DNA of 64,000 bases, taken from the sequence record NC_052653.1. One strand, written 5' to 3'. The position numbers and the translations under genes were made by a program. Positions 30,883 to 59,875 of the stretch are shown here, piece by piece (within the stretch, counting starts at the first letter, position 1; each line of letters begins with the position of its first letter). Origin of the DNA: Escherichia phage vB_vPM_PD06. Under the pieces are notes generated by a model. That model searched no databases. It was given only the letters and a program-made list of their open reading frames with translations, and was not told where the DNA came from.

Positions 30883-30958
30883 TGGTCGTGGTAAACGGAG
30901 TCGAACCGTTGTTTCTCGATTATCGGTCGAGTGTACTAACCATCTGTACGATACCACA
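30883..30958 (-). tRNA. tRNA-Ile (anticodon GAT)
   Basis: Hand fold: 7 bp acceptor (U1-G72), T arm AACGG/TTCGACT/CCGTT, anticodon stem CTCGA/TCGAG, loop CCGATAA (C at position 33 is unusual), CCA encoded. Confidence 0.55.
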
Positions 30959-30963
30959 ATAAT

Positions 30964-31060
30964 TGGCAGCAAGGTGAGGAATCGAACCCCTTGATCTATG
31001 GTTTGGAGCCATATTGAGTACCATACTCTTTTAAATCTACCCAGCTATGAGTTCCTTGAG
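30964..31060 (-). ncRNA. tRNA-like sequence with Trp-type (CCA) anticodon hairpin, non-canonical 5' half
   Basis: T arm AGGGG/TTCGATT/CCTCA, 3' acceptor CCTTGCT-G-CCA, perfect hairpin TATGG-CTCCAAA-CCATA and D-like GAGT...ACTC, but no matching 5' acceptor strand at canonical distance. Confidence 0.3.
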
Positions 31061-31104
31061 GTGTCAATGTAATTTAATCATTACACCAGAAGGGAGGTAT
31101 TTAG

Positions 31105-31183
31105 TGGAGGCGGGAATCGGATTTGAACCGATGATCTCCAGCATATGAAACTGGCGAGGACGACCAGACTCCTCTATCCCGCG
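31105..31183 (-). tRNA. tRNA with CAT anticodon (elongator Met or Ile2 type)
   Basis: T arm ATCGG/TTCAAAT/CCGAT, anticodon stem CCAGT/GCTGG, loop TTCATAT, 11-nt D loop; position 1-72 is an unpaired C-C. Confidence 0.5.
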
Positions 31184-31198
31184 CAATCTGTAATAATT

Positions 31199-31283
31199 TG
31201 GTAGCTAAGGTGAGACTCGAACTCACAATCCCTTGGGGCAATACGTTCTAAGCGTATCGTGTATACCATTCCACCACTTAGCC
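31199..31283 (-). tRNA. tRNA-Leu (anticodon TAG), type II
   Basis: 85 nt; acceptor GGCTAAG/CTTAGCT, anticodon stem ATACG/CGTAT, loop CTTAGAA, long variable arm, T arm GTGAG/TTCGAGT/CTCAC, CCA encoded. Confidence 0.6.
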
Positions 31284-31360
31284 ATAATAAGTACACCACT
31301 GTAAGAAGCCTCAATGTGCTATTGACAGTTAACCAAGTCTACTCCTTGGATGGTGTTATT

Positions 31361-31435
31361 TGGTGCAGAGAGATGGTAACGATCCATCCTTTCTACCTTT
31401 TCAGGGTAGCACTAATCCGTCTCAGCTATCTCTGC
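31361..31435 (-). tRNA. tRNA-Phe (anticodon GAA)
   Basis: Perfect acceptor GCAGAGA/TCTCTGC, anticodon stem CTACC/GGTAG, loop CTGAAAA; T loop ATCGTTA is atypical. Confidence 0.5.
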
Positions 31436-31440
31436 AAATT

Positions 31441-31516
31441 TGGTCAGTGCGGCAGGACTCGAACCTGCGACCTGAAGCGTCCAAGGCTCCCACGCTACCA
31501 ACTGCGCTACGCACTG
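31441..31516 (-). tRNA. tRNA-Pro (anticodon TGG)
   Basis: 76 nt; acceptor CAGTGCG/CGCACTG, D arm GCGC/AGTTGGTA/GCGT, anticodon loop CTTGGAC, T arm GCAGG/TTCGAGT/CCTGC, CCA encoded. Confidence 0.7.
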
Positions 31517-31523
31517 TAAATCT

Positions 31524-31598
31524 TGGCTGGAGATCTAGGAATCGAACCTAGTCATCACGACTTCAAAGGCCGTTGCCTTCCCACTAGGCTAATCTCCA
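31524..31598 (-). tRNA. tRNA-Gln (anticodon TTG)
   Basis: 75 nt; acceptor TGGAGAT/ATCTCCA, anticodon stem ACGGC/GTCGT, loop CTTTGAA, T arm CTAGG/TTCGATT/CCTAG, CCA encoded. Confidence 0.6.
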
Positions 31599-32029
31599 AT
31601 AAATTACTTCAGTGTTACCACAAAGTGACGAACTGCTTTTCGTGCAGCAGAAGCCAGAGGCTTAGCATACTTAAGTTCATCTTTTTCCATTATAAATTCT
31701 CTTTTAAATGAAAATGCAGGACTTATTGGCATTGCCTGCGCAAGCCCTCAAGGGGAACATAGGTTTTTGGATATTTAACGACCAGGATAACCATAAACCC
31801 GTCATCATTCACATTCAAGAGGTACACCATAAAACTGCCGGGGTCTTAAAACTATAATGATTCGCAAATCATTAATCAGACAGTTCGATGGCTCCTCGAT
31901 TTTAGCTCACACTAAGGCAGTGAATCTCCAATAAACTAAAAAATCACTTAAAAAGAACCGCTAGAGTTTGAAGGAGAAAACCATGAGCGAAAAGAGAAAT
32001 TTTCTCTAGCGATTCCATTTAAATAATCT

Positions 32030-32104
32030 TGGAGCGAGTAACAGGACTTGAACCTGCACCTGGAGGGTGGAAACCTCATATGCTACCATTAACACTATAC
32101 CCGC
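32030..32104 (-). tRNA. tRNA-Gly (anticodon TCC)
   Basis: 75 nt; acceptor GCGGGTA/TACTCGC, anticodon loop TTTCCAC closed by a 4 bp stem with one mismatch, T arm GCAGG/TTCAAGT/CCTGT, CCA encoded. Confidence 0.5.
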
Positions 32105-32159
32105 TTAACAATATTACTCTAACATACTATTAGCCCCTTTGTCAAGAGGCTTTTGATAC

Positions 32160-32489
32160 TTATTTTAAAATAGTAGATGCACCACGTCTGTTTAGATATG
32201 CAATAGTAAAGTCCAAATCACCTATTTCTTCAGGTTCCCACTGACCTTCTAAGCCATAACAAGAACAATGATATGCGTGTACTTCATAAAACAAAGATGT
32301 TTTCATATCATAAAAATAAACGTGAGATTCACCTTCATAATATGCACAATCATAAGTGGCAGAAAGAATTACAATGTTATCCTTATCTAACTCTACTTCA
32401 TAATATCTTTCAACATCTTCAATATCATCAAAACCATCGAAAACATTGATATTAAAATATTTCTCTAACTCTTTTTCTGTCACATACAC
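32160..32489 (-). CDS. hypothetical protein inside tRNA array
   Basis: 109 aa acidic, Tyr/Cys-rich ORF between tRNA-Gly and tRNA-Thr. Confidence 0.45.
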   Translation of the reverse strand: MYVTEKELEKYFNINVFDGFDDIEDVERYYEVELDKDNIVILSATYDCAYYEGESHVYFYDMKTSLFYEVHAYHCSCYGLEGQWEPEEIGDLDFTIAYLNRRGASTILK

Positions 32490-32506
32490 TCCTTTAGAGT
32501 TAAAAT

Positions 32507-32581
32507 TGGTGCTCCCACAAGGACTCGAACCCTGATAAGTTGCTTACAAGGCAACCGTAATAGCCGTTATACGATAGGAGC
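32507..32581 (-). tRNA. tRNA-Thr (anticodon TGT)
   Basis: 75 nt; acceptor GCTCCTA/TGGGAGC, anticodon stem GTTGC/GCAAC, loop CTTGTAA, T arm CAGGG/TTCGAGT/CCTTG, CCA encoded. Confidence 0.6.
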
Positions 32582-32587
32582 AATACT

Positions 32588-32664
32588 TGGACTCGGCAGG
32601 ATTCGATACCTGCAATTCCAGAAGCCTCTTGGCGACTGGGGGTTTACCTTAACTCTACAAGTCC
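32588..32664 (-). ncRNA. tRNA-like sequence, non-canonical interior
   Basis: 7 bp acceptor-like pairing GGACTTG/CGAGTCC and perfect T stem GCAGG/CCTGC around 8-nt loop TATCGAAT, but no canonical 5-7-5 anticodon arm. Confidence 0.25.
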
Positions 32665-32671
32665 ATAATTC

Positions 32672-32756
32672 TGGCGATGGATCAAGGATTTGAACCTTGC
32701 TAGAACTTTCGTTCACGGATTAACAGTCCGTCGCCCAACCACTAGGCCAATCCATC
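32672..32756 (-). tRNA. tRNA with Asn anticodon (GTT) and a long variable arm (type II-like)
   Basis: 85 nt; acceptor GATGGAT/ATCCATC, anticodon arm ACGGA-CTGTTAA-TCCGT, 15-nt variable region GAACGAAAGTTCTAG forming a GAAC/GTTC stem with GAAA loop, T arm CAAGG/TTCAAAT/CCTTG, CCA encoded. Confidence 0.5.
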
Positions 32757-32763
32757 TTTAATT

Positions 32764-32850
32764 TGGTGCAGGTAGTTGGACTCGAACCAACGAAGCCCCG
32801 AAGGGCAAGAGATTTACAGTCTCCAGCAATTGCCGCTATGCGATACCTAC
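32764..32850 (-). tRNA. tRNA-Tyr (anticodon GTA), type II
   Basis: 87 nt; acceptor GTAGGTA/TACCTGC, anticodon stem GGAGA/TCTCT, loop CTGTAAA, variable arm GCCC-TTCG-GGGC, T arm GTTGG/TTCGAGT/CCAAC, CCA encoded. Confidence 0.65.
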
Positions 32851-32855
32851 GTGTT

Positions 32856-32931
32856 TGGTACATCGTGAAGGATTCGAACCTTCGACCTTGGAGTTAAAAG
32901 CACCTTGCTCTACCAACTAAGCTAACGATGT
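32856..32931 (-). tRNA. tRNA-Lys (anticodon TTT) with weakly paired anticodon stem
   Basis: 76 nt; perfect acceptor ACATCGT/ACGATGT, D arm GCTT/AGTTGGTA/GAGC, T arm GAAGG/TTCGAAT/CCTTC; anticodon loop CTTTTAA flanked by AGGTG/CTCCA with two mismatches. Confidence 0.5.
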
Positions 32932-33065
32932 ATAAATTATCTTTAAAATAGCCAGTGTTTGCGGCACTTAGCTATGAAGTATTGGGGTATCGGTAAAGTG
33001 GTTACCGCCACTTGCCGAAAGTTTACTCTGCTAAAGTAAGATTACAAGCTACATTAAAGATAACT

Positions 33066-33151
33066 TGGCGGTAGATGTAGGACTTGAACCTACACGCCGT
33101 TTCCGACGACAGTTTAGCAAACTGTTGTGGCTACCATTTCACCAATCTACC
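33066..33151 (-). tRNA. tRNA-Ser (anticodon GCT), type II
   Basis: 86 nt; acceptor GGTAGAT/ATCTACC, anticodon stem ACAGT/ACTGT, loop TTGCTAA, variable arm CGTCG-GAAA-CGGCG, T arm GTAGG/TTCAAGT/CCTAC, CCA encoded. Confidence 0.65.
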
Positions 33152-33159
33152 GTTCTTAA

Positions 33160-33312
33160 TTATTCAAAACAACCGGAATCTTTTTGTTCTGCTTTTACCA
33201 TACGAATATTTTTACCATCTTCAGATTGTTGAAGATTAGAATACTCATAAACAACTTTATTATCTACAATCTTAACTCCGGTAACAACCTGTCCAATAGT
33301 TTTATAATTCAT
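33160..33312 (-). CDS. small hypothetical protein (50 aa)
   Basis: Six-frame ORF 33160-33360 overlaps tRNA-Ser at its 5' end; internal ATG at 33312 has AGGAG upstream. Confidence 0.3.
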   Translation of the reverse strand: MNYKTIGQVVTGVKIVDNKVVYEYSNLQQSEDGKNIRMVKAEQKDSGCFE

Positions 33313-33330
33313 AAAGCTCCTAGTTGAATT

Positions 33331-33420
33331 TGGAGGAAGATAATGGAGTCGAACCATCACCGTATCGCTACAATGGGCCAGGGTTCAAACCTGGTTGCGC
33401 ACCGCTGCGCCCTACCTTCC
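33331..33420 (-). tRNA. tRNA-Ser (anticodon TGA), type II
   Basis: 90 nt; acceptor GGAAGGT/ATCTTCC, anticodon stem CCAGG/CCTGG, loop TTTGAAC, ~19-nt variable arm, T arm GATGG/TTCGACT/CCATT, CCA encoded. Confidence 0.6.
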
Positions 33421-33435
33421 CGTTATCATACTTTA

Positions 33436-33465
33436 AATCTAACATAAAACTATCTTGCTTGTCAA
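33436..33465 (-). promoter_or_regulatory. candidate sigma70-like promoter inside tRNA array
   Basis: Minus strand TTGACA, 18-nt spacer, TAGATT; upstream of tRNA-Ser(TGA). Confidence 0.3.
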
Positions 33466-33483
33466 GTAGTTTTTAAAACTTTT

Positions 33484-33565
33484 TGGTCGGGGTGACAGGA
33501 TTCGAACCTGCATACTCCAATTACTCGGTTAACGCCTGATTAGAAGTCAGGTGAGATACACCCCG
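33484..33565 (-). ncRNA. tRNA-Arg(TCT)-like sequence lacking a canonical D arm
   Basis: 7 bp GC-rich acceptor CGGGGTG/CACCCCG, T arm GCAGG/TTCGAAT/CCTGT, perfect hairpin CCTGA-CTTCTAA-TCAGG, but only 7 nt between acceptor and that hairpin and a 23-nt insert before the T arm. Confidence 0.35.
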
Positions 33566-33637
33566 TTTTCACAGTAACTATAACAAAAAACTAAGTGAAT
33601 GTCAAGATATTTTTACTAAAATTATTATTTAAATTGA

Positions 33638-33743
33638 AGCCTAGTTATGGAATCGAACCATATTTCGTATTTAGTTAGACAAAGCGGTCTAACATATTTT
33701 TCAGGCTTTGATGGCCTCGGAATTACCAAATACCCTACTAGGC
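33638..33743 (-). ncRNA. 106-nt tRNA-like element
   Basis: T arm TATGG/TTCGATT/CCATA and exact 7 bp acceptor pairing GCCTAGT/ACTAGGC 106 nt apart; interior has hairpins AGGC-CATCAAA-GCCT and GTTAGAC-CGCTTT-GTCTAAC; no CCA encoded. Confidence 0.25.
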
Positions 33744-33745
33744 GT

Positions 33746-33831
33746 TGGTGCAAGTGGAGGGATTCGAACCCTCAATCATTTAAGCGTTGCGTTTTAAGCA
33801 CAATGTGTATCACCAATTCCACCACACTTGC
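33746..33831 (-). tRNA. tRNA-Leu (anticodon TAA), type II
   Basis: 86 nt; acceptor GCAAGTG/CACTTGC, anticodon stem TTGTG/CGCAA, loop CTTAAAA, T arm GAGGG/TTCGAAT/CCCTC, CCA encoded. Confidence 0.6.
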
Positions 33832-33862
33832 ATATAGGAGATGCATAGCATCTCCTTTTAAA

Positions 33863-33938
33863 TGGTGGTTCCCCAGGGTTACAATCCCTGCCCTCGACAC
33901 TTATGAGGTGTGCGCTCTCGTCAGTGAGCTATGGAACC
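33863..33938 (-). tRNA. tRNA with CAT anticodon (second copy; Met or Ile2 type)
   Basis: 76 nt; D arm GCTC/GAGC perfect, anticodon loop CTCATAA, T stem CAGGG/CCCTG with atypical loop ATTGTAA, acceptor has one mismatch at 7-66. Confidence 0.45.
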
Positions 33939-34685: not shown

Positions 34686-36419
34686 TTAGTCAACCTGGAT
34701 GGTTCCCATAGTACGAAGAACCTCTACATCAACACGGTTGCGGATATCAGTGAATGTTTCATCACGACCTTCTACTTGTGGTGTAATAACCTTACCATTC
34801 TTGAAGATAACTTGTAACTCATTGTCTTCATCCTGGATATCTTTAAAAGAAAGATTATCTACAAGAGAAAGATTACCATTGGTATCATTAACAACCTTAA
34901 TAAAACCTTTTGCAGAGCGTTTACCAGGATCAGTTTTAGGCTCCTTACTTACCAAAATTTCGTGTTCACCGATGATACTACCTGTTGCTTTAACAGCAAA
35001 ACCAAAAGTATCTCGTGTATTGAACTGATAAGTATAACTACCAACACCAAATACAATATTGGAAGCTGCAAAACCTTTCTTCTTCAGTCGGCGTAAGATC
35101 TCGTGTTCTCGTTCAACAGTAATAGAATCACCATAAATCATACCGATATGCTGATCAAGAACCTTGTAGCCTTTTCGGTTGATAGTACCACCAAACACTT
35201 CCCAAAGGATTTGAATAGAACCTACTGCTTCACAATAAGGAATCTCATAAGTTTCATCAATACAGTCAGCAACACTGCAATCCTGAAGAACATTGTAATA
35301 CTTATTAACATCAGCCAAATGAACTACTTCAGTGGCTGTCGCAATACCATTATTTAAGAGGTCTTGATAGTTATCAAAAGATTCAACATTGTATCCTGCA
35401 ACAACTTTAACCGGATCTCCTGAATCTGGACGAATAACAAGACGACCATTTCGTGACATAATGGAATCTTTCAATTCTACCAGAATGCGAGTCAATACAG
35501 CCCAATAGTCATAAGAGTCTGCTACATATGAACAAAAACCTTCTGGAACAATTTCTTCGATATAACGACGAAGAAACTCTTTTTCTGCTACATAACGAAG
35601 CCCATCTACATCATCTTTAAGATGTGGGAAATGTTTCTTCAGATCTTCAACAATAGATCCAATGTTAGTCGTTGCTACTGAATGTTCTGTTGCCGGAATC
35701 GAACCTGCAACAAACTGATCATAATCAATACCATAATAGTCATGCACAGTTTCAATAGCCAGAATATTATCTGTTCCTGTGAACGATGCCAAGTGAGCGA
35801 TACCACTCTTATAACCATCTTCGATATTACTTAAACCACGTAGGCTAAAATCATGACACTGGAAGTTAACGTGATCAATATTATCACACGTTGCCATCGC
35901 ATATGCCATAGCGATACGCTTATACTGAAAAGCTGCTGTGGCATTAGTCATTGTCTTCCAAGTTTCATCTGACAACAGTGTTTCCACATAGTTAGTTAAC
36001 CAAAAGAATTTTTCTAAAGTATTATGCACAGTAAACACAGGAACACCAATAGGACACAAAACACCTTCTGGCAGAGATCGAACTTCCAGCGGAAGATAAC
36101 CTAAATCGTGCAATTCTCCCCAACATTCCGCAGAAGGAGCAGAAGCACCTAACGCATTTTTAGACATACGATAAAATTTATTTACTGCTGCACTACGAGA
36201 CATTTTAAAGAAGCTATCCCACATAGTTACAAGAGCATCAGTGACTGCTCGACGAATACCTAAAACAATCACACCACGTGCTTCACGATCTGCATAGTGT
36301 GCAAAGTTTTTATCATTACGAGGAGTTAAATTAGAGAAAATAAGTTTTGTATTTTGGTTGTACATCTGCTTGTGACCAGGTTTGTACCAATCAGTAGCAA
36401 AAGGTGCAAAAATATTCAT
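34686..36419 (-). CDS. nadV: nicotinamide phosphoribosyltransferase (NAMPT/NadV family)
   Basis: 577 aa; N-terminal TDWYKPGH motif and RPDSGDP motif characteristic of NAMPT-type phosphoribosyltransferases. Confidence 0.75.
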   Translation of the reverse strand: MNIFAPFATDWYKPGHKQMYNQNTKLIFSNLTPRNDKNFAHYADREARGVIVLGIRRAVTDALVTMWDSFFKMSRSAAVNKFYRMSKNALGASAPSAECWGELHDLGYLPLEVRSLPEGVLCPIGVPVFTVHNTLEKFFWLTNYVETLLSDETWKTMTNATAAFQYKRIAMAYAMATCDNIDHVNFQCHDFSLRGLSNIEDGYKSGIAHLASFTGTDNILAIETVHDYYGIDYDQFVAGSIPATEHSVATTNIGSIVEDLKKHFPHLKDDVDGLRYVAEKEFLRRYIEEIVPEGFCSYVADSYDYWAVLTRILVELKDSIMSRNGRLVIRPDSGDPVKVVAGYNVESFDNYQDLLNNGIATATEVVHLADVNKYYNVLQDCSVADCIDETYEIPYCEAVGSIQILWEVFGGTINRKGYKVLDQHIGMIYGDSITVEREHEILRRLKKKGFAASNIVFGVGSYTYQFNTRDTFGFAVKATGSIIGEHEILVSKEPKTDPGKRSAKGFIKVVNDTNGNLSLVDNLSFKDIQDEDNELQVIFKNGKVITPQVEGRDETFTDIRNRVDVEVLRTMGTIQVD

Positions 36420-36490: not shown

Positions 36491-37384
36491 TTAAAAATTC
36501 CACACGTATGGAGATACAATTTGTTGTTGCAAATCTGACTGATTCTTAACAAGAACACCAGAATCTTCTTGGATGTTATCTTCCCACACATTAAGAGAAT
36601 GAATGCAGTCAAAGTGCTCACTTAACTCTTTAAGACCTTTAGAAAAGATACCGTGTGTAACATATAGCTCAATCTTACCTGCGTTACGAGCACGTAGCAC
36701 TTTAGCCAATTCGATAAAAGTTCTACCACCATCACAGATATCATCTACGATCATCAGGTTACGCTTATTGAAATCCTGTACAGAAATGTCTGTACGAACA
36801 ATAGCACCTGTTGCGGTATCTCTAACCTTCTCTGCACAGAACACATCTAAAGACATTTTCTTAGATAATTTAAATATTTTCTTAAGAGCACCACCATCAG
36901 GGCTAACAAGAGCAAAATTCTCCATACGTAACTTCCACTTTAAAGTTTCGTAAGCAATCTCTTCTTGAGGCATTACACAGAGTCTGTCAAACACTGCTGG
37001 AGTAACATCACTATGCGGATCAGCAACGATAACACGTGAGAAATTTAATGAATTAATTATAGAAGCAAATGCTTTAACTCCGAATGCTTCCCCAGGCTCA
37101 CACACTCTGTCTTGTCGTGCATACGGCACATACAACATGAGTAAATCAACACAATATGGTTTATGATATAGCATATTGTCCAATGCATTCTTAGTCATAA
37201 CCAAAGTCATCAAGTCTTTAGCAGATCTTACTTCTAAAGTGAGTAAGATTCTGTCTGTAGCATGATTGAAACCTGATAGATTCGTATCTAATTGAACATG
37301 TTGTTCTCCACCAGAGAATGTAAACACTTTAACGTCTACATCAGTAACATAACAGTCAACACCATGCAGAATACTAACTTTCAT
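36491..37384 (-). CDS. prs: ribose-phosphate pyrophosphokinase (PRPP synthetase)
   Basis: 297 aa; PRPP-binding motif MIVDDICDGGRTF; adjacent to nadV. Confidence 0.7.
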   Translation of the reverse strand: MKVSILHGVDCYVTDVDVKVFTFSGGEQHVQLDTNLSGFNHATDRILLTLEVRSAKDLMTLVMTKNALDNMLYHKPYCVDLLMLYVPYARQDRVCEPGEAFGVKAFASIINSLNFSRVIVADPHSDVTPAVFDRLCVMPQEEIAYETLKWKLRMENFALVSPDGGALKKIFKLSKKMSLDVFCAEKVRDTATGAIVRTDISVQDFNKRNLMIVDDICDGGRTFIELAKVLRARNAGKIELYVTHGIFSKGLKELSEHFDCIHSLNVWEDNIQEDSGVLVKNQSDLQQQIVSPYVWNF

Positions 37385-37422
37385 TCTTTATCTCCTTAGT
37401 TGCGTTAGGACTTTATGTTCTC

Positions 37423-37452
37423 TACTCTACATACAGATAGATCTAAAGTCAA
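37423..37452 (-). promoter_or_regulatory. candidate sigma70-like promoter for prs-nadV
   Basis: Minus strand TTGACT, 18-nt spacer, TAGAGT, about 40 nt upstream of prs start with AAGGAG RBS. Confidence 0.35.
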
Positions 37453-37460
37453 TAGATATT

Positions 37461-37510
37461 TATTATTTAATTAATAATAAAATTAATAAATAATTAATAA
37501 ATAATCTATT
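37461..37510. repeat. AT-rich tandem repeats (TTAATAA/ATAAATA units) in divergent intergenic region
   Basis: ttaattaataataaaattaataaataattaataaataatc between divergently transcribed prs and the plus-strand early genes. Confidence 0.5.
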
Positions 37511-37804
37511 GTTAGTATAGAGCATGTATGTTAGTATTATAGATATAACATAGTGCTATATGTAGACTACTCAGTTGTCTGTTAGATCATGTATCACAAG
37601 ATTAGATAACACCCCCTCGCTGCGCTCGGCGTTTTTCGGGGGTTAGGGTAGCATACTTTTTTGCGTTTGTCAACACCTTTTTGGATTATTTTTAAGTACA
37701 ACCTGAACCTCCTAAAAACGATTGTAACGAGTTTTACTGTGAGGTAAGGTGATTGCATATCTTAGAGGCTATTAGCTCGTTACAGAGCCATACAGGAGGG
37801 AATA

Positions 37805-39430: not shown

Positions 39431-39772
39431 GTGGCTAAAATTCTTTGGTTAGACGATTTAAGAGATCCTAAAGATTATGGTTATGAGGATGCCATTTGGT
39501 TAAAATCTTTTGAGGATTGGTTATCTTTTGTTTCAGATGAAGATAATTTCAATAATATCTCAGAGATACACTTCGATAATGATCTTGGAGAAGATCAAGA
39601 AGGATATCATGCGTTCTTAGACGTAGAATGTATGTTGTACGCGGGTGAATGGGATGCTCTTAAAACTATCTATGTTCATACATCAAATCCTTCTGCTGCT
39701 GGTAAATATATGTTAGCCAAGGAAAATTTTATTTCATCCTATGGTGTTGAAATTAAACGTGTTAACTATTAA
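39431..39772 (+). CDS. hypothetical protein
   Basis: GTG start with GGAAGGGGG upstream; 113 aa. Confidence 0.35.
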   Translation: MAKILWLDDLRDPKDYGYEDAIWLKSFEDWLSFVSDEDNFNNISEIHFDNDLGEDQEGYHAFLDVECMLYAGEWDALKTIYVHTSNPSAAGKYMLAKENFISSYGVEIKRVNY

Positions 39773-39781
39773 GGAGGTGTT

Positions 39782-39928
39782 ATGCTTTATGTTATTTGGG
39801 TAGATGAAGGGGATGGGTTTTATATATACAAACACACTAACCATTGGCCCGATGTAGAAAAAGCACTTGCAACTTTTGAAGATTGCTTTTACGATATACA
39901 TACAGACGAAGAGTATGTAGAAAATTGA
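39782..39928 (+). CDS. small hypothetical protein (48 aa)
   Basis: ATG with AAGGAGG RBS; below ORF-track cutoff. Confidence 0.35.
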   Translation: MLYVIWVDEGDGFYIYKHTNHWPDVEKALATFEDCFYDIHTDEEYVEN

Positions 39929-40287
39929 TGTGCGCTACTAATCAACATGATATTTGTTACCAACCTCTTACTTGGATTGGTGAGGATCACTATGCTCAAC
40001 GTGTTATAGTCTGCGCTGCGAATAAGTATATTCTCAACAATGGCGAAGAGTTAATTATTCCTTGTGTTAGGCATGCAAATCCTGTACTATCTGCACAACT
40101 TAATGTTTTAAAAGATGCAGGATTGATCGATAAACTGTTTTGCTTACCTGATAATCAAGGGTTTATTGATCAATATTATAATTGGTGGAGTCGCAAAGAT
40201 GCTTATATCATTGCAGATAACGCCAAACAAATTAACTATGAAAGAAATGGTCACGACAGTGAACTATTCAGCGAGGGATTATACTAA
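39928..40287 (+). CDS. hypothetical protein
   Basis: ATG overlapping previous stop (TGATG); 119 aa. Confidence 0.35.
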   Translation: MCATNQHDICYQPLTWIGEDHYAQRVIVCAANKYILNNGEELIIPCVRHANPVLSAQLNVLKDAGLIDKLFCLPDNQGFIDQYYNWWSRKDAYIIADNAKQINYERNGHDSELFSEGLY

Positions 40288-40838
40288 TGTTTATTACAAG
40301 TGATTTGCATTTTATGCACAAACGTATTCGAGAGTTTGCTCCTGAATATCGCCCGTGGGAAGATATGGAGCATATGACAGAAGCACTGATTGAAGCATGG
40401 AATAAATGTGCTACGAGTCCTGGTGTCAAGATGTGGCATTTGGGCGACTTCTGTTTCGGGACTGAAGAAGATACCCGTAAAATTGCTTCACGTCTTCAAG
40501 GTGATATCACTTACTGTGTTGGGAACCATGATTACAGCAAACACCGAGAAGTGCTTGCAGAATATGGCGAGGTGGTGTATTATGACGAAGTGAAATATCA
40601 GAAACTGTTCTTCGTCTTAAGTCATTACCCTATGGCTGCTTGGAATAAACAAGGGCATGGATCAATCATGCTACACGGGCACTCTCACGGATCATTCCCT
40701 GATCATTTGTATGGGAAAATGTTGGATGTTGGTTGGGATGCACACGGAAAAATCTTGCATTTTGACGAAATCATCTCTATTATGGATAAGCGTGATATTG
40801 TTGTTGTAGACCATCATAAGATAATCAAAGGAGATTAA
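40287..40838 (+). CDS. metallophosphoesterase (calcineurin-like)
   Basis: 183 aa with GDxxxG...GNHD...GHSH metal-binding motifs. Confidence 0.6.
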   Translation: MFITSDLHFMHKRIREFAPEYRPWEDMEHMTEALIEAWNKCATSPGVKMWHLGDFCFGTEEDTRKIASRLQGDITYCVGNHDYSKHREVLAEYGEVVYYDEVKYQKLFFVLSHYPMAAWNKQGHGSIMLHGHSHGSFPDHLYGKMLDVGWDAHGKILHFDEIISIMDKRDIVVVDHHKIIKGD

Positions 40839-40839
40839 G

Positions 40840-41772
40840 GTGGCTAAGTTCAATTGTGATGACCTGATTGCAAAAGGTTTAGTGCATAAAAAAGAAGTTA
40901 AATCTGGAGAGTATGCTGGTCTTGCTGTACTTAAATACAAAAACAATGTATTCTGGGATAACTTGTGGAACGTTGACAAACGACTCCTAGATTGTCGTGG
41001 GTTGGTTGTTGACTCAGAAGACAATGTTGTTATCTGGCCTTTTACTAAAATCTTTAATCGTTTTGAGAATGGTACAGATCTTCCAGCAGACCAGCTTGTA
41101 GATGCTGTCCGTAAAGTAAACGGTTTTATGGCATCTGTAGGTGTGTACAAAGGGCAACTTATTGTATCAACAACAGGGAGCCTAGAGTCAGATTTTGCAA
41201 CTCTTGCCAAGAACCATATTGTTTCCGAGTGTGATGACATAGAATATTTCATTAAGTGGACAGAAAGTGCAAAAGCAACTTTCCTTTTTGAAATCTGTGA
41301 TCCTTCTGATCCACATATTGTCGAAGAAGAACCAGGCGCATACTTAATTGGAGCAAGAATTCAAAATCTTGATGGGACAAGTTTCATGCTACCCGAAGGT
41401 GTGCTTGATGGGATTGCATCTATTACAAAATTTAAACGTCCTGAAGTTTATCCGATGATTAAATTTTCAGATGTTGTTGAAATGTCTAAACATTGTAAGC
41501 ACGAAGGGTTTGTTGTTCGGGAAACAAACTATCCGTTTAACTTGCTGTTAAAGATTAAGTCACCATATTATCTTGCTAAGAAATTCCTTATGCGTGGTGG
41601 CAATAAGAAGTGGGATATGATTTGGGACAACCCAAAAAATGCTAAACAAATTGTTGACGAAGAATATTATACTTTGCTAGAATGGCTTCGAAACAACTTT
41701 ACTAAGACTCAATGGGCTGCTTTAGATCCACAAGAGCGACGTAAAGAAATAGAAAACTTCTTTGGAGGCTAA
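40840..41772 (+). CDS. Rnl2-like RNA ligase (nucleotidyltransferase)
   Basis: 310 aa; VDAVRKVNG resembles the T4 Rnl2 motif I region (VAREKIHG); EGFVVRE and LKIK motifs downstream. Confidence 0.5.
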   Translation: MAKFNCDDLIAKGLVHKKEVKSGEYAGLAVLKYKNNVFWDNLWNVDKRLLDCRGLVVDSEDNVVIWPFTKIFNRFENGTDLPADQLVDAVRKVNGFMASVGVYKGQLIVSTTGSLESDFATLAKNHIVSECDDIEYFIKWTESAKATFLFEICDPSDPHIVEEEPGAYLIGARIQNLDGTSFMLPEGVLDGIASITKFKRPEVYPMIKFSDVVEMSKHCKHEGFVVRETNYPFNLLLKIKSPYYLAKKFLMRGGNKKWDMIWDNPKNAKQIVDEEYYTLLEWLRNNFTKTQWAALDPQERRKEIENFFGG

Positions 41773-42177
41773 ATGAAACAACTTATCATTTTACGTGGTG
41801 TTTCAGGTGCAGGTAAATCTACAGTAGCAGAAATTATTTCTGAAGGTTATTGGCCTATCTGTGAGGCAGATCAATATCATTACACAGAAAGTGGTGTTTA
41901 CGATTGGAAGCCAGAGAATGTAGGTAAAGCACACGCATGGTGTCAGAGTATTGTTCGTGATGCTATGGTATCTAATATTAAAAAGATTATTGTCTCTAAC
42001 ACTTCAACCACAGAGAAAGAACTTAAACCTTATTTAACTCTTGCTGAAGAGTTTGGTTATCAAGTTATCTCCTTAGTTGTTGAAAATAGGCACGGTAACG
42101 ACTCAATTCATGAGGTTCCACAACATACTCGTGATCAGCAAGAGAAACGTCTTCGCAGTTCACTTAAGCTACAATAA
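41773..42177 (+). CDS. P-loop kinase (polynucleotide kinase-like)
   Basis: 134 aa; Walker A GVSGAGKST at N-terminus; directly follows the ligase. Confidence 0.5.
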   Translation: MKQLIILRGVSGAGKSTVAEIISEGYWPICEADQYHYTESGVYDWKPENVGKAHAWCQSIVRDAMVSNIKKIIVSNTSTTEKELKPYLTLAEEFGYQVISLVVENRHGNDSIHEVPQHTRDQQEKRLRSSLKLQ

Positions 42178-42743: not shown

Positions 42744-42932
42744 ATGACATTTATTGAAGAACTAACGAGAATTGCAAACGCACCTAACAGTAGCGAAGAT
42801 CCTTACTTTATGGTGGATGATTACACTGGTGGTAATATTGATGATGCCTATGAACTAGGCAGACTACACGGTGAAATTGAAATGGCTAAATGGGTTCTTT
42901 CGCAACTGGAGGTTAAAGATGAAACAAACTAA
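42744..42932 (+). CDS. hypothetical protein
   Basis: ATG at 42744 within six-frame ORF 42729-42932. Confidence 0.3.
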   Translation: MTFIEELTRIANAPNSSEDPYFMVDDYTGGNIDDAYELGRLHGEIEMAKWVLSQLEVKDETN

Positions 42933-44034
42933 TCCTACACTATATGGTAAAACTTCTACAGGTAAAATTAAACAGTGGTCAGTCTATACCGAAGGTAGTG
43001 TTGTAACTGTTGCTCATGGTCAATTAGGTGGAAAGATTACTAGCAAATCTTATACAGCAGAACCTAAAAATATTGGTCGCTCAAATGAAACAACAGCAGA
43101 AGAACAAGCTGAAATAGAAGCTCTTGCCAAATGGACAAAGCAACTTAAGAATGGGTATTATAAAACAAAAGAGGAAGCTGAAAACCATGTTCCTTCCACA
43201 CCCATGAAATGTCAGGATTATAAAGATTATGCTGATCGTGTTTTGTTCCCAGGTTATGCACAGTATAAATTGAATGGTCTACGTTCAATGATTAACATGC
43301 AAGGTGAATGTTTATCTAAAGCTGGGGAAGTATATAAACTTCCACCTCACTGGAAAGAAATTCCAACCTTCATTAAAGAAGTAGTTGGTCATCCTCTTGA
43401 TGGTGAAGTTTTTGCTGGTTTGGGTGTTCTTAGCCTTCAGCAAATTAATAGTGCGTGGAAAAAGCATAATGCTAACACTCCGCTTCTTAAATACTATGTA
43501 TATGATGTTCCTGTGCCATCTGTACCATTTGAGAAGAGGGTTGAAGTTTTGGCTGCTCTAAAAGAAGTTGTTGAAGATAAAGGTTTAGATGAACTTATTT
43601 GTGTAGTGCATACAGAGTACATTGAAAACCAAGAGCAGTTTGATGAATTCTATGCAAAAGCTCTGCGTGAGAAAGCGGAAGGTGTGGTGTATCGTAATGC
43701 ACAAGGTGTTTACGAGTTTGATAAACGTTCTTATGATGTTATTAAACGTAAACCACGGCAGACGCTTGAAGTTAAGGTGGTAAGTGCAAAACGTGATAAA
43801 AATGGTGACGGGGTATTGACAGGCGAGATGGAAAATGGTAAAGTAGTCGAATTCCTGATGCGTAAGGATTCAGATGAAACCATTAACTATCGTAAAGCAG
43901 AAAATGCCGAAATGTTAATTGGTAAATTTGTTGAGATTGAGTATGAAGAGTTTTCCGATGGTGGAATACCTACTAAACCAACAGGTGTACGTGTACGTAA
44001 GATGATTCCAGGTACTTGGGAACCAGCAGAATAA
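42919..44034 (+). CDS. lig: ATP-dependent DNA ligase
   Basis: ATG at 42919 after GGAGG; KLNGLR adenylation motif (KxDG-type), EGVVYR motif, C-terminal OB-like region. Confidence 0.65.
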   Translation: MKQTNPTLYGKTSTGKIKQWSVYTEGSVVTVAHGQLGGKITSKSYTAEPKNIGRSNETTAEEQAEIEALAKWTKQLKNGYYKTKEEAENHVPSTPMKCQDYKDYADRVLFPGYAQYKLNGLRSMINMQGECLSKAGEVYKLPPHWKEIPTFIKEVVGHPLDGEVFAGLGVLSLQQINSAWKKHNANTPLLKYYVYDVPVPSVPFEKRVEVLAALKEVVEDKGLDELICVVHTEYIENQEQFDEFYAKALREKAEGVVYRNAQGVYEFDKRSYDVIKRKPRQTLEVKVVSAKRDKNGDGVLTGEMENGKVVEFLMRKDSDETINYRKAENAEMLIGKFVEIEYEEFSDGGIPTKPTGVRVRKMIPGTWEPAE

Positions 44035-44043
44035 GAGGTAAAT

Positions 44044-44223
44044 ATGGTATTAGCAACAGTTCTTATGATGTTAATTGCTATTGCAATTATAATGTTAGCC
44101 TCGTTTCCAGTGAACAAATGGTACTGCAATTTTTGTAGATTTGTTGTTTTCCTCTGTGCTGGGGCGTATATGGGCGAATCGGTAGTTCGCATTAGTGTTT
44201 TGTTAGAACAATATTTTAAATAA
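44044..44223 (+). CDS. small hydrophobic membrane protein (59 aa)
   Basis: ATG with AAGAGG RBS; almost entirely hydrophobic. Confidence 0.35.
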   Translation: MVLATVLMMLIAIAIIMLASFPVNKWYCNFCRFVVFLCAGAYMGESVVRISVLLEQYFK

Positions 44224-44232
44224 GGAGAAACA

Positions 44233-44955
44233 ATGATCGAGAATTTTTTCAAACAAGTAAAAGTGGACAATAGCTTCTTTATCAAAGCTGCCGATCAAAT
44301 TGTTGCTTGGAATGCTAAGGCACGTGGTGGCGTAACTCCAGAGTTTACTCAAGAGATGTTTGAAGCTCAACTTTCTTTTGTACGAGAAGAACTAAAAGAG
44401 TTCCAAGCAGCAGCACAGGAAAATGATCACGTTGAATTACTTGATGCAGCAGCAGATATTTTTGTGGTAGCATCCTATCTGGCGTTTATGTTCTTTGGTA
44501 AAGAAGGTGTTGATAAAGCTCTGGAAATGCCGACAGGAGATGTTCTGGCAGAAAACATCTACGATGTTATCATTGAATTTGATAAAATGGTAGAAAATGA
44601 CTTGCAATTTGCCCTAATGTCTCTTACACTTACACGTATGGCACGAGATACTTTGGTGCGTTCTGTTTATAACGAGAAGAAGGTTATGCGTGAAGTGTTG
44701 AATAGCAATGAGTCCAAGTATCCTACCAAGAAGCAACTCCTGGCTATTTGGGAAACTAAGGATATTGTTGAAGCTCTTGAAAAAGAGTGTGATGCTATCG
44801 AGATGAGAAGCAAAGATCGTGCAGAAGGTTCTTATACTGGAGTACATGCTGTATATAACGAAGTTCAAAAGGTATACGTATTCTTTGATGACAAAGGTAA
44901 AATTATGAAGCCATCTACCTTTGTTAAACCTAATATCGCAGCAATCATTGCTTAA
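44233..44955 (+). CDS. MazG-like all-alpha nucleotide pyrophosphohydrolase (possible dimeric dUTPase type)
   Basis: 240 aa; EELKEFQAAAQENDHVELLDAAADIFVV resembles the MazG/HisE metal-binding helix pair. Confidence 0.4.
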   Translation: MIENFFKQVKVDNSFFIKAADQIVAWNAKARGGVTPEFTQEMFEAQLSFVREELKEFQAAAQENDHVELLDAAADIFVVASYLAFMFFGKEGVDKALEMPTGDVLAENIYDVIIEFDKMVENDLQFALMSLTLTRMARDTLVRSVYNEKKVMREVLNSNESKYPTKKQLLAIWETKDIVEALEKECDAIEMRSKDRAEGSYTGVHAVYNEVQKVYVFFDDKGKIMKPSTFVKPNIAAIIA

Positions 44956-44991
44956 GAAATAAAGCCCCTTCGGGGGCTTATTGGAGGTATT

Positions 44992-57246: not shown

Positions 57247-57444
57247 ATGATGCTAGATCAACTGATCAATGCTCCTCGCGTAACAGTAAGTCCAAAAACA
57301 TTTGCATCACTTTTAGAAGATGCTAGAGAGGTTTATAACTTTACTGAAGAAGAGCTTCCTGTTCCTGTTGAAAAAGGTTCCAGATGGTTGTTTTATGAAG
57401 GTATTATTTTTACTGAAGGGAATAATTGGAAGGAGACTAAATGA
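57247..57444 (+). CDS. hypothetical protein
   Basis: ATG with AGGAGG RBS; 65 aa. Confidence 0.3.
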   Translation: MMLDQLINAPRVTVSPKTFASLLEDAREVYNFTEEELPVPVEKGSRWLFYEGIIFTEGNNWKETK

Positions 57445-58430
57445 AATACTTAGTAACAGGTGGTTTAGGCTTTATTGGAAGTGCGGTAGTTCGTTTCCTA
57501 GCTAAAAATACTAAGAATGATATTTACGTTATAGATAAATGGGGTTACGCTTCAGACCCTAGAAATTTATCAGAAACACCTAATGTAAAGTTTTGTCGTG
57601 TTGACTTGACAAATGCTCAGTTAACTGCTAAGATTGTGGCAGATGTTAACCCAGATTATATAATGCATCTTGCAGCAGAAAGTCACGTAGATAATTCAAT
57701 AGCATCACCGAGTGTTTTTATAAATTCAAATATTGTTGGAACATTTAATCTTCTAGAAGCTGTTCGTTTAATGGGAGATAAATCAAATCTTAAAATGTTT
57801 CATCATATTTCAACAGATGAAGTGTATGGTGATATGGAAGAAGGGGATTATCCGTTTACAGAACAGAATCCTTATAAACCAAGTAGTCCATATGCTGCAT
57901 CTAAAGCTGCAAGCGATCATTTGGTAAGAGCGTGGCATCGTACTTATGGTATTCCGACAGTTATAACAAATTGTTCAAATAATTTTGGAGCGTATCATCA
58001 TCCAGAAAAACTAATACCTAAAACGATAACAAATATCTTGATGCATAAACCAATCCCTGTTTATGGCAATGGTCTTCAAGTAAGAGACTGGCTATACGTT
58101 GACGATCACGCAGAAGCATTACACCTAGTAGTAACTAAAGGCAAATCTGGAGAAACATATAATATTGGGAGCAGAAACCCTAGAACTAATATTGATGTAA
58201 TCTATATGATTTGTGATTATATGGATGCGGTATATCCATCTGAAACAGATGCTTGTAGCCTCATTGAGATGGTTACAGATAGGCCTGGGCATGATCTAAG
58301 ATATGAAGTGAATCCTTATAAGATTGAAAAGGAATTAGGGTGGAAAGCTAAAGGCACATTTGAAGAAAAACTTTATTCAACCATTGATTGGTATGTAGAT
58401 AACAAAGAGTGGTGGGAAAATAAAGTTTAA
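57441..58430 (+). CDS. rmlB: dTDP-glucose 4,6-dehydratase
   Basis: 329 aa; N-terminal [14 protein letters not shown] Rossmann motif, [11 protein letters not shown] catalytic YxxxK. Confidence 0.75.
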
Positions 58431-58438
58431 GGAGGAGT

Positions 58439-59308
58439 ATGAAAGGTATTATCTTAGCAGGTGGTAGTGGAACAAGACTTTACCCAGTTACTAAAGGGGT
58501 TAGTAAACAACTATTACCAATTTATGATAAGCCTATGATTTATTATCCACTCTCTGTCCTAATGCTTTCTGGAATTAGGGAAATACTAATAATTACAACA
58601 CCAGAAGATCAAATTAATTTTGTAAATCTTCTAGGTGATGGTTCTTCTTTTGGTATTTCCCTACAGTATGCAATACAGGATAGTCCAAGAGGTTTAGCAG
58701 AAGCGTTTATTATTGGTGAGAACTTTATTGGTGAAGATTCTGTAGCACTTGTGCTAGGTGATAATTTATTCTTTGGTCAGAGTTTTGGTAGCATTTTAGA
58801 TTCTGCTAAAGAACATATTGAAAAGAATGGTGGAGCTAATATTTTTGGGTATCACGTAAATGATCCTGAAAGATTTGGTGTTGTTGAGTTTGATTCTGAA
58901 GGTACAGTGGTAAGTATTGAAGAAAAACCAAAAGCACCAAAAAGCAACTATGCAATTACAGGCTTGTACTTTTACGATAATTCTGTTATACAGAAAGCTA
59001 AAAGCGTTAAGCCTTCTGCTAGAGGGGAGTTAGAGATTACAGATATAAATGAGATGTACTGGAAAGAAAAGGCTTTACGTGTCTGTAAGCTAGGAAGAGG
59101 TTTCACTTGGCTGGATACAGGAACACATGAAAGTCTTATGGAAGCATCTCAATTTGTTCATGCAATAGAAAAGCAACAAGGTATGAAGGTTGCATGCCTA
59201 GAAGAGATTGCTTTTAAAAATGAATGGATTACTTTAGATTCTGTAAAAAGTTCTGGAGAGGTTTTAAGTAAAACAGACTACGGCAAGTATTTACTTAAAT
59301 TAAAATAA
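58439..59308 (+). CDS. rmlA: glucose-1-phosphate thymidylyltransferase
   Basis: 289 aa; N-terminal [18 protein letters not shown] signature. Confidence 0.75.
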
Positions 59309-59320
59309 GGGGGAGATTAA

Positions 59321-59875
59321 ATGATTCAAGCAACAAAAATCGAAGATTTGTTGATCATTCAACCTGACGTTTACGGGGATGAACGTGGTTTTTTCTTAGA
59401 AAGTTTTAATCAGGCTTTATATGATCAATACATAGGTAAACAAAACTTTGTCCAAGATAACCATTCACGTTCTATTCGAGGAGTTCTACGTGGGCTTCAT
59501 TTTCAAAAGAAAAACCCACAAGGGAAGTTAGTACGTTGTGTTCGTGGTGAAGTTTATGATGTTGCTGTAGATATTAGGGTTGGTAGTCCAACATTTGGAG
59601 AATGGGTAGGTGTTCTTTTATCTGAAAAGAATAAAACACAATTTTGGATTCCTCCTGGTTTCGCTCATGGCTTTGTTGTGATTAGCGACATTGCTGATTT
59701 TGAATATAAATGTACAGAATATTACGATCCGACTTCAGAGTGTAGTCTTGCGTGGAATGATCCAGATATCAATATAGATTGGGGTTTTGATTTAATCTTT
59801 AATGATATTAATTTTAAACCTATCTTGTCACAAAAAGATCAGGAAGCCAAAACACTAAAGGAGATCATATTTTGA
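59321..59875 (+). CDS. rmlC: dTDP-4-dehydrorhamnose 3,5-epimerase
   Basis: 184 aa; LRGLHFQ motif and cupin-like pattern; position between rmlA and rmlD. Confidence 0.65.
   Translation: MIQATKIEDLLIIQPDVYGDERGFFLESFNQALYDQYIGKQNFVQDNHSRSIRGVLRGLHFQKKNPQGKLVRCVRGEVYDVAVDIRVGSPTFGEWVGVLLSEKNKTQFWIPPGFAHGFVVISDIADFEYKCTEYYDPTSECSLAWNDPDINIDWGFDLIFNDINFKPILSQKDQEAKTLKEIIF

Follow-up and report, generated by a model that had tools for sequence, protein, structure and literature searches.

A conserved gene module of metallophosphoesterase, Rnl1-type RNA ligase and stand-alone polynucleotide kinase in a phAPEC8-like phage, with a probable role in RNA end repair

Three consecutive genes of Escherichia phage vB_vPM_PD06 (sequence record NC_052653.1) encode a calcineurin-type metallophosphoesterase (MPE), an ATP-dependent RNA ligase and a P-loop polynucleotide kinase (Table 1). 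The DNA analysed is a stretch of 64,000 nucleotides (the window) of a phAPEC8-like E. coli myovirus (Stephanstirmvirinae, Justusliebigvirus); its segment 39398-42507 shares 99.8% identity with Escherichia phage vB_EcoM_PHB05 and 95-98% with many relatives. An earlier note on this DNA had singled out positions 40287-42177 as an RNA-repair-like trio, and three plus-strand open reading frames (ORFs) do lie at exactly these coordinates. Homologues of the cassette genes, at 30-49% identity, are present in seven further phage genera, and the three ORFs are therefore real conserved genes. GenBank records of relatives already label them 'RNA ligase/RNA repair', 'phosphoesterase' and 'polynucleotide kinase'.

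The three genes are packed in the manner of an operon within a long block of plus-strand genes for replication and nucleotide metabolism. The ATG of the MPE gene is overlapped by the stop codon of the gene upstream (TAATG). A single nucleotide separates the MPE and ligase genes, with AAGGAG lying inside the 3' end of the former, ahead of the GTG of the latter, and the stop codon of the ligase gene abuts the kinase ATG (0 nt), with GGAGG just upstream. These junctions suggest translational coupling of the cassette.

The ligase carries the Pfam domain RNA_lig_T4_1 (5.7e-14, the whole profile being covered), matches phrog_562 at 1.2e-68 and is found in 748 phage records. (phrog_562 is the PHROG that contains T4 gp63; it is named 'RNA ligase and tail fiber protein attachment catalyst'.) Searched directly against the PDB, the single sequence has no match and a five-sequence profile has a weak Rnl3 match only (0.075). 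Because these searches found little, the relationship to T4 Rnl1 is shown by hhalign and by a structure model. The T4 rnlA sequence used for comparison matches T4 records at 100%; aligned to T4 Rnl1 by hhalign, the ligase family profile scores 96.9% probability and E 1.8e-10, at a sequence identity of ~17-20% between the phage ligase and T4 Rnl1. The AlphaFold model of the ligase, built on 45 homologues (mean pLDDT 92.4), is closest among known structures to T4 Rnl1 (score 22.6, extent 264), followed by fungal Trl1 ligase domains (21.7-22.2, 252-262), archaeal Rnl3 (16-17, 237-238), Rnl5 (14.0, 187) and T4 Rnl2 (12.9-13.7, 177), with DNA ligases at <=11.1 and capping enzymes at <=9.2. Foldseek ranks the relatives of the model in identical order, T4 Rnl1 again being closest. 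The label 'Rnl2-like' given to this protein by the earlier note is thus wrong: Pfam family, motifs and fold all make it Rnl1-type. The same comparison excludes a DNA ligase or an mRNA capping enzyme, either of which the note had named as fatal to its reading, the best fold match being T4 Rnl1 and not these.

At residue level, R53, K70, F72, K92 and G95 of the ligase align with R54, K75, F77, K99 and G102 of T4 Rnl1, and E151, E222, G223, K238 and K240 align with T4 E159, E227, G228, K240 and K242. Motifs I (K92-V-N94-G95), III (E151), IV (E222-G223) and V (K238/K240) are invariant in the 45 homologues, as are R53 and K70, and F72 is invariant or nearly so. In T4 Rnl1, Arg54 and Lys75 make contact with the gamma-phosphate of ATP and cannot be dispensed with (PMC6379707). 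Others on the list of essential T4 Rnl1 residues reportedly go back to Wang, Ho, Pei & Shuman 2003.

The similarity to T4 Rnl1 ends with motif V. T4 Rnl1 is 374 amino acids long and its residues 255-374 constitute a C-terminal domain that confers tRNA specificity, whereas the ligase of the window has 310 residues, of which only ~60-70 follow motif V in a helical, family-specific module without detectable similarity to the T4 domain. Searched by sequence against the PDB, Trl1 ligase-domain entries included, this C-module matched no solved chain. What sets one clade of RNA ligases apart from another is the domain joined to the nucleotidyltransferase core (PMC6379707). On this criterion the catalytic domain is Rnl1-like and the protein as a whole may fall outside the strict Rnl1 clade; it has a C-terminal module of its own and stands as far from T4 Rnl1 as Trl1 does.

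The kinase matches Pfam AAA_33 (2.5e-9), phrog_2071 (6.4e-58) and phrog_505, 'polynucleotide kinase' (9.8e-9), and has the P-loop G9-V-S-G12-A-G14-K15-S16 (GxxGxGK(S/T)). The best PDB matches of a five-member kinase profile are the kinase domain of Clostridium thermocellum Pnkp (CthPnkp; 4gp7, 7.6e-6) and T4 Pnkp (1ly1/1ltq, 8.2e-6), with Capnocytophaga Pnkp1 (4xrp, 1.8e-4) third and all three ahead of other kinases, so that the P-loop kinase of the earlier note can be specified as one of polynucleotide-kinase type. In T4 Pnkp the catalytic aspartate that activates the 5'-OH is Asp35. D33 of the phage kinase (in CEADQY) has a counterpart by eye in all five family members (END, EAD, EHD, AAD) and aligns with the Asp of 'SSDF' in CthPnkp; it does not form a single invariant MAFFT column, and in the alignment with T4 a gap falls here. 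The protein is a kinase domain alone, with no fused 3'-phosphatase domain (HAD in T4, MPE in C. thermocellum). A deoxynucleoside monophosphate (dNMP) kinase, the other identity that the note had set against itself, is rejected: the match to phrog_139 (2.3e-4) is limited to P-loop residues 1-35, and no dNMP kinase is among the significant PDB matches.

The third protein, the MPE, matches phrog_547 at 4.6e-55. Its single sequence scores 22.7 bits against Pfam Metallophos_2, below the 27-bit cutoff, and its family profile finds PDB entry 1xm7 (Aquifex aq_1665) at 2.7e-16. The metal-binding residues D6, H8, D54, N80, H81, H113, H132 and H134 are invariant in the family alignment; they lie in the motifs D6-L-H8, G53-D54, G79-N80-H81-D, H113 and G131-H132-S-H134 (DxH/GD/GNH(D/E)/H/GHxH). 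On these motifs the protein is assigned to the calcineurin-like binuclear metallophosphoesterase superfamily, in agreement with the note. From the gene context it is proposed to be a 2',3'-cyclic phosphodiesterase and/or a 2'/3'-phosphomonoesterase acting on RNA ends.

That context is constant. Relatives of the ligase were examined in 95 loci (7 annotated phage records, 80 IMG/VR contigs and 8 bacterial genome contigs), in which partner genes were sought by hidden Markov model. Linkage was counted over ligase lineages with >=3 kb of flank on each side, a partner being scored when it lies <=3.5 kb from the ligase. With ligases clustered at 70% identity, 40 of 43 lineages have a linked MPE, 35 a kinase, 33 both and 1 neither; clustering at 50% identity leaves 21 lineages, with MPE in 18, kinase in 17, both in 15 and, again, neither in 1. 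Matches also concentrate close to the ligase: 75 kinase matches lie within 3.5 kb and 5 beyond, and 78 MPE matches lie within and 1 beyond, for 624 and 714 kb of DNA searched, respectively. Together the three genes make up a conserved module, in which an aq_1665-type MPE, and not a sirtuin or a cREC protein (cREC being a cyclic-phosphate-processing receiver-like domain), is the near-universal partner of the ligase family.

Kinase and ligase are also found joined in single proteins of 431-513 residues (Pfam AAA_33, then RNA_lig_T4_1) in several viral contigs and in the genomes of five bacteria, Cardiobacterium, Neisseria flavescens, Campylobacter concisus, Moraxella and Kingella. In N. flavescens (locus L093, 2306-11401) the gene order is RtcR, Thg1-like, Ro60/TROVE, kinase-ligase fusion, a 176-residue protein of no assigned function, MPE and Nudix; RtcR adjoins the fusion locus in Moraxella and Kingella, and Ro60 does so in Cardiobacterium. 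The fusion and an aq_1665-type MPE stand in these RtcR-associated operons (L093; also L091, L096 and L097) in the place of RtcB/RtcA. The Thg1-like protein of Neisseria is of the 3'-5' polymerase type. RtcR activates the RtcBA RNA-repair operon, its own trigger being 5' tRNA halves with a terminal 2',3'-cyclic phosphate (PMC7790460). The RtcR operon setting therefore provides independent contextual evidence that the module handles broken RNA with 2',3'-cyclic-phosphate ends.

Linkage and fusion also bear on the reading of the ligase as chiefly a tail-fibre attachment factor, after the second function of T4 gp63, with unrelated nucleotide-metabolism enzymes for neighbours. The name of its best PHROG prompts that reading, these phages bear many tail fibres, and insertions in rnlA of T4 and of Bas37 are poorly tolerated on E. 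coli K-12, which suggests a role in T-even phages beyond conditional RNA repair. However, the linkage or fusion of the ligase with a kinase and a phosphoesterase, in phages as well as in RtcR operons of bacteria that are not phage-derived, is not readily accommodated by it, nor is the invariance of all nucleotidyl-transfer residues in the 45 homologues, and the gene lies within the replication and nucleotide-metabolism block rather than among structural genes. The homologue in the Vequintavirinae phage Bas54, moreover, takes insertions (mean ~192 reads/site) and so is dispensable for infective virions on K-12; this tolerance argues against a structural role of the ligase family in tail-fibre attachment. 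We give the tail-fibre reading next to no credence.

Table 1. Positions of the cassette genes and of other features in the window
Feature	Position	Strand	Length	Remark
Calcineurin-type binuclear MPE, aq_1665-like subfamily	40287-40838	+	183 aa	proposed 3'-end healing
ATP-dependent RNA ligase, Rnl1-type adenylyltransferase domain	40840-41772	+	310 aa	GTG start; proposed sealing
Stand-alone P-loop 5'-OH polynucleotide kinase	41773-42177	+	134 aa	proposed 5'-end healing
cREC protein	39431-39772	+		Pfam PF20274 cREC_REC
Small ORF between cREC and Arn.3-like genes	39782-39928	+	48 aa	CDS in close relatives
T4 Arn.3 homologue	39928-40287	+		phrog_839, 3.1e-47; Pfam PF26092 (precomputed table)
Separate ATP-dependent DNA ligase	42919-44034			~0.7 kb downstream of cassette
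MazG-type nucleotide pyrophosphohydrolase	44233-44955	+		Pfam PRA-PH, 3.2e-7; phrog_671, 6.4e-28
GC-rich hairpin	44962-44987			terminator-like on both strands
Divergent intergenic region	37385-37804			
Phosphoribosyl pyrophosphate (PRPP) synthetase-like (Prs)	36491-37384	-		phrog_619, 4.9e-91
Nicotinamide phosphoribosyltransferase (NadV)	34686-36419	-	577 aa	annotation
tRNA array	30883-33938	-		15 genes by ARAGORN
Additional tRNA-like element	33487-33565			Rfam
Four consecutive genes of a dTDP-sugar pathway	57441-58430, 58439-59308, 59321-59875, 59872-60702	+		spanning 57441-60702

Upstream, the cassette of this phage probably reaches as far as the cREC gene, ~0.5 kb ahead of the MPE gene. The match of its product to PF20274 is clear of the 27-bit cutoff (54.3 bits, 2.3e-14, profile positions 2-81 of 88), and a homologue 47% identical to it lies directly after the ligase in Vequintavirus. 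The cREC domain has been predicted by the Aravind group to open 2',3'-cyclic phosphates (PMC9503650, PMC7824862). Pfam scans of 20 small neighbouring ORFs found no cREC beside the ligase in the other genera. Because it is detected in only 3 of the 43 lineages, cREC is likely a lineage-specific accessory.

Two genes separate cREC from the MPE. The 48-residue ORF has no PHROG or Pfam match. The product of the second gene is 47% identical to T-even arn.3 and belongs to a family present in 1581 phage records, whose members are sometimes mislabelled 'anti-restriction nuclease'; its confident AlphaFold model (pLDDT 86.6) matches nothing in the PDB with E <1 (the best being 1.5). The Arn.3-like gene is near the ligase in just 2 other loci and is 70 kb from it in Erwinia phage pEp_SNUABM_01. 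It was rejected as a conserved member of the cassette, to which it probably does not belong, the family being widespread in T-even phages and mostly unlinked to the ligase.

The MazG gene lies 2 kb downstream of the cassette. A homologue 30% identical to it adjoins the sirtuin gene in Vequintavirus, and Iyer et al. 2022 (PMC9503650, section 3.7.3) include MazG among the genes of the rV5-type neighbourhood; by this association it may be tied to RNA repair. Directly after the MazG gene comes a GC-rich hairpin, which alone is a strong candidate for where the transcription unit of the cassette ends. A scan for promoters returned 31 promoter-like sites where 28.1 were expected, and is uninformative on the timing of expression; the label 'early' given to the genes by the earlier note is not supported. 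Between the DNA ligase and MazG genes the window has a 200-bp spacer (44034-44233), where the phage PaulScherrer (L001:10619-11451) has a homing endonuclease of the HNH type and a 63-residue ORF; the difference is a presence/absence polymorphism of the homing endonuclease. (The PaulScherrer gene, of 209 residues, had been considered as a candidate sirtuin; its match to phrog_374 at 3.2e-72 makes it the HNH enzyme.)

At ~37.5 kb the plus-strand block diverges from a minus-strand block that holds NadV, the PRPP-synthetase-like gene and the tRNA array; GC skew turns from negative to positive at ~37.4-38 kb, where the direction of transcription switches. NadV and/or Prs lie <=8.5 kb from the ligase in 19 of the 43 lineages, this window included, and the NAD-salvage pair is thus a recurrent neighbour of the module, not a proven part of it. 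No sirtuin was found in the window (tblastn with the Vequintavirus sirtuin, best E 0.86); in the close relative W22, a 48%-identical Sir2 lies ~30 kb from the cassette.

NAD salvage, cREC and sirtuin are brought together by a reading in which the phage uses an NAD-dependent pathway like that of yeast Trl1: cREC or the MPE would leave a 2'-phosphate, the ligase would seal the end bearing 3'-OH,2'-PO4, and the 2'-phosphate would finally be stripped off by a phage sirtuin with NAD+, in the way of Tpt1/KptA. It is the model put forward for rV5-type phages by Iyer et al. 2022 (PMC9503650). Such a pathway would explain the frequent NAD-salvage neighbours, because the sirtuin step spends NAD+, and if true it would place 'yeast-type' tRNA-ligation chemistry in phages and in RtcR-controlled bacterial operons. 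The ligase family would then be a separate clade, an Rnl1/Rnl6-type adenylyltransferase with a ~70-residue C-module, working in a 2'-phosphate-dependent pathway. The C-module does have invariant basic residues right after motif V, but their parallel with Trl1 is one of position only, with no alignment. The window itself is without a sirtuin, and the ~30 kb that separate sirtuin and cassette in relatives also speak against this pathway, as does the absence of any demonstrated activity for cREC or for these sirtuins (PMC9503650). cREC and sirtuin, furthermore, are found in only 3 of 43 lineages and the MPE is nearly universal, which argues for a self-sufficient core of kinase, MPE and ligase. 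Fungal Trl1 itself (an Rnl6-clade ligase, a GTP-dependent kinase and a 2H cyclic phosphodiesterase, CPD) has the order ligase-kinase-CPD as against the kinase-ligase order of the fusions described here, its CPD is a 2H enzyme in place of an MPE, and it requires a 2'-PO4. The Trl1-like pathway appears unlikely to us, and the separate clade that goes with it is equally doubtful.

The position of the cassette, in a DNA-metabolism block, ~0.7 kb upstream of the ATP-dependent DNA ligase gene and near RdgC-like and exonuclease genes, could instead mean that kinase and MPE heal DNA ends (5'-OH, 3'-phosphate) for that ligase in replication, recombination or repair. Of the 7 distant phage loci, 3 have a DNA-ligase homologue within a few kb, and T4 Pnkp is active on DNA ends too. 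Even so, we judge healing of DNA ends to be highly improbable as the function of these enzymes.

The tRNA array had been joined to the trio in the earlier note as parts of one counter-measure. The array exists (Ile, Met x2, Leu x2, Phe, Pro, Gln, Gly, Thr, Asn, Tyr, Lys and Ser x2 by ARAGORN), but it is on the opposite strand and ~6 kb from the cassette. At gathering score Rfam finds tRNAs only, 14 of them, lacking the Ser (33331-33420) and Met (33863-33938) genes called by ARAGORN and adding one tRNA-like element that ARAGORN missed. The array includes Lys(UUU), Asn, Thr and Tyr tRNAs, which are reported targets of tRNA-cleaving defences. Its position, a few kb from the cassette here and in Vequintavirus, could also be taken to mean that the module serves the phage's own RNAs, in maturation or recycling of the tRNA-array transcript or in repair of collateral damage by phage RNases; and dispensability of the module on three E. 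coli hosts singles out no defence system. No tRNA gene needs ligation, however, since ARAGORN and Rfam call continuous tRNAs, and the module is also present where a phage locus has no tRNAs nearby, as well as in bacterial RtcR operons of stress type. The T4 precedent, moreover, is one of counter-defence. Maintenance of the phage's own RNAs is, on this balance, quite improbable.

The cassette is, with considerable confidence, an RNA end-healing and end-sealing module; that the three genes constitute specifically a split heal-and-seal RNA-repair module operating by T4/CthPnkp-style logic is probable. The core of the heal-and-seal idea put forward in the earlier note holds. The analysis establishes which families and folds the proteins belong to, that their catalytic motifs are intact, and that the genes are packed like an operon, conserved in linkage, fused in places and set in RNA-repair operons of bacteria; the activities, the order of the steps, the tRNA substrate and the counter-defence role are what we infer from this, as follows. 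A metal-independent RNase would cut RNA, most plausibly in the tRNA anticodon loop, and leave 2',3'-cyclic-phosphate and 5'-OH ends. The MPE would remove the cyclic or mono-phosphate to yield a 3'-OH (in this lineage perhaps with help from the upstream cREC, which would open the cyclic phosphate), the stand-alone kinase would phosphorylate the 5'-OH to a 5'-PO4, and the Rnl1-type ligase would adenylylate itself on Lys92, pass the AMP to the 5'-phosphate and seal the break. Damage by metal-independent RNases is implied because the cuts of metal-dependent ones (3'-OH/5'-P) need no healing; the implied attackers are HEPN nucleases (PrrC, RloC, Cas13) or colicin- or toxin-type tRNases. Whether the main role of the module is to counter tRNA-targeting immunity, as the note had proposed and as the analogy with T4 would have it, is a question on which we are evenly divided.

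Several observations weigh against this interpretation. T4 Rnl1 Lys119, which is reportedly essential, aligns with Thr112 of the ligase. The C-module of the ligase contains no detectable equivalent of the tRNA-specificity domain of T4 Rnl1 (hhalign 1.9%), so that a tRNA substrate is not established. The closest solved relative of the MPE, aq_1665, is without known function, and the MPE family profile has no sequence match to CthPnkp or to the lambda-phosphatase subfamily; for these reasons an RNA-end substrate of the MPE is assumed from gene context alone. None of the three families has a measured enzyme activity, and the literature searched contained no biochemical or genetic test of the module. 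Finally, insertions in the Bas54 homologues of the cassette genes are not depleted on two uropathogenic isolates. (On E. coli K-12, Bas54 tolerates insertions in its homologous ligase, kinase, phosphoesterase and cREC-like genes and in its sirtuin gene.) The Bas54 data are consistent with a conditional accessory function without positively supporting one, and they point to no target defence. In the T-even phage Bas37 the Pnkp orthologue is conditionally essential in one isolate.

Comparison with known systems shows both likeness and difference. T4 Pnkp and Rnl1 counter the PrrC anticodon nuclease; here the kinase stands alone, as 134 residues without the HAD-type phosphatase domain, the end-healing phosphoesterase is a separate binuclear MPE, and the three genes are adjacent, whereas T4 pseT and rnlA are not. 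C. thermocellum Pnkp (of the Pnkp-Hen1 system) resembles the cassette in combining a P-loop kinase, a calcineurin-type binuclear MPE and an ATP-dependent RNA ligase, and its kinase domain is the PDB entry that best matches the cassette kinase family, as given above. The sirtuin-centred neighbourhood of rV5/Mydo-type phages (PMC9503650, section 3.7.3) shares a T4-like ligase, cREC, nucleotide kinase, MazG and calcineurin-like phosphoesterase with this locus, the Vequintavirus homologues being 30-47% identical to the proteins here. The arrangement differs: here cREC is followed on one strand by MPE, ligase and kinase, whereas in Vequintavirus MPE and kinase are divergent from ligase, cREC, sirtuin and MazG. 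The rV5/Mydo type has a linked sirtuin and this locus has none, which places it outside the sirtuin neighbourhood, and the phosphoesterase that is called 'occasional' there (PMC9503650) is here the most constant partner of the ligase (40 of 43 lineages). Homologues of the module in bacteria fill the same niche as RtcB/RtcA (with Ro60/Y RNA) in the operon regulated by RtcR, beside RtcR with Ro60/TROVE and Thg1-like genes; unlike that proteobacterial operon, the phage cassette is without RtcR, Ro60 and Thg1. RtcB joins a 3'-P or 2',3'>P end straight to a 5'-OH, whereas the module described here must heal both ends and then seal a 3'-OH to a 5'-PO4.

Observations of other kinds were made in passing. 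The four consecutive genes at the far end of Table 1 are labelled nucleotide-sugar epimerase, glucose-1-phosphate thymidylyltransferase, dTDP-4-dehydrorhamnose 3,5-epimerase and second epimerase in a near-identical RefSeq record, and constitute a dTDP-sugar pathway in a phage. Four unannotated records named 'Campylobacter phage' (MG065639, MG065645, MG065656 and MG065689; host C. jejuni) match these E. coli phages at 96% identity along the full 3.1-kb query; wrong labels or contaminant assemblies are the probable reason.

The module, real and widely distributed as it is, had already been predicted in the literature: Iyer et al. 2022 independently predicted RNA repair for such a neighbourhood (PMC9503650), and an anti-defence role has been suggested in genome papers, for example that of phage Adele. 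The finding is solid and fairly ordinary, an increment because the module had been predicted computationally before and is annotated in GenBank. What goes somewhat beyond the literature found is the MPE as near-universal partner, the RtcR/Ro60-associated kinase-ligase fusions of bacteria and the C-terminal module proper to the ligase; some of these three points may already stand in Burroughs & Aravind 2016.

Defences that cleave tRNA (PrrC, RloC, Cas13, PARIS, retron-Eco7, Septu, Schlafens) are now acknowledged to be a main branch of bacterial immunity, and the phage counter-measures to them decide host range. Beside T4 Pnkp/Rnl1, the only repair pathway that has been studied well, the cassette represents a widespread alternative. 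Its biochemical characterisation would give function to a large family of phage genes annotated as 'phosphoesterase' or 'ATPase', and could explain why therapeutic Stephanstirmvirinae, Vequintavirinae and Pakpunavirus phages differ in their sensitivity to RNA-targeting defences.

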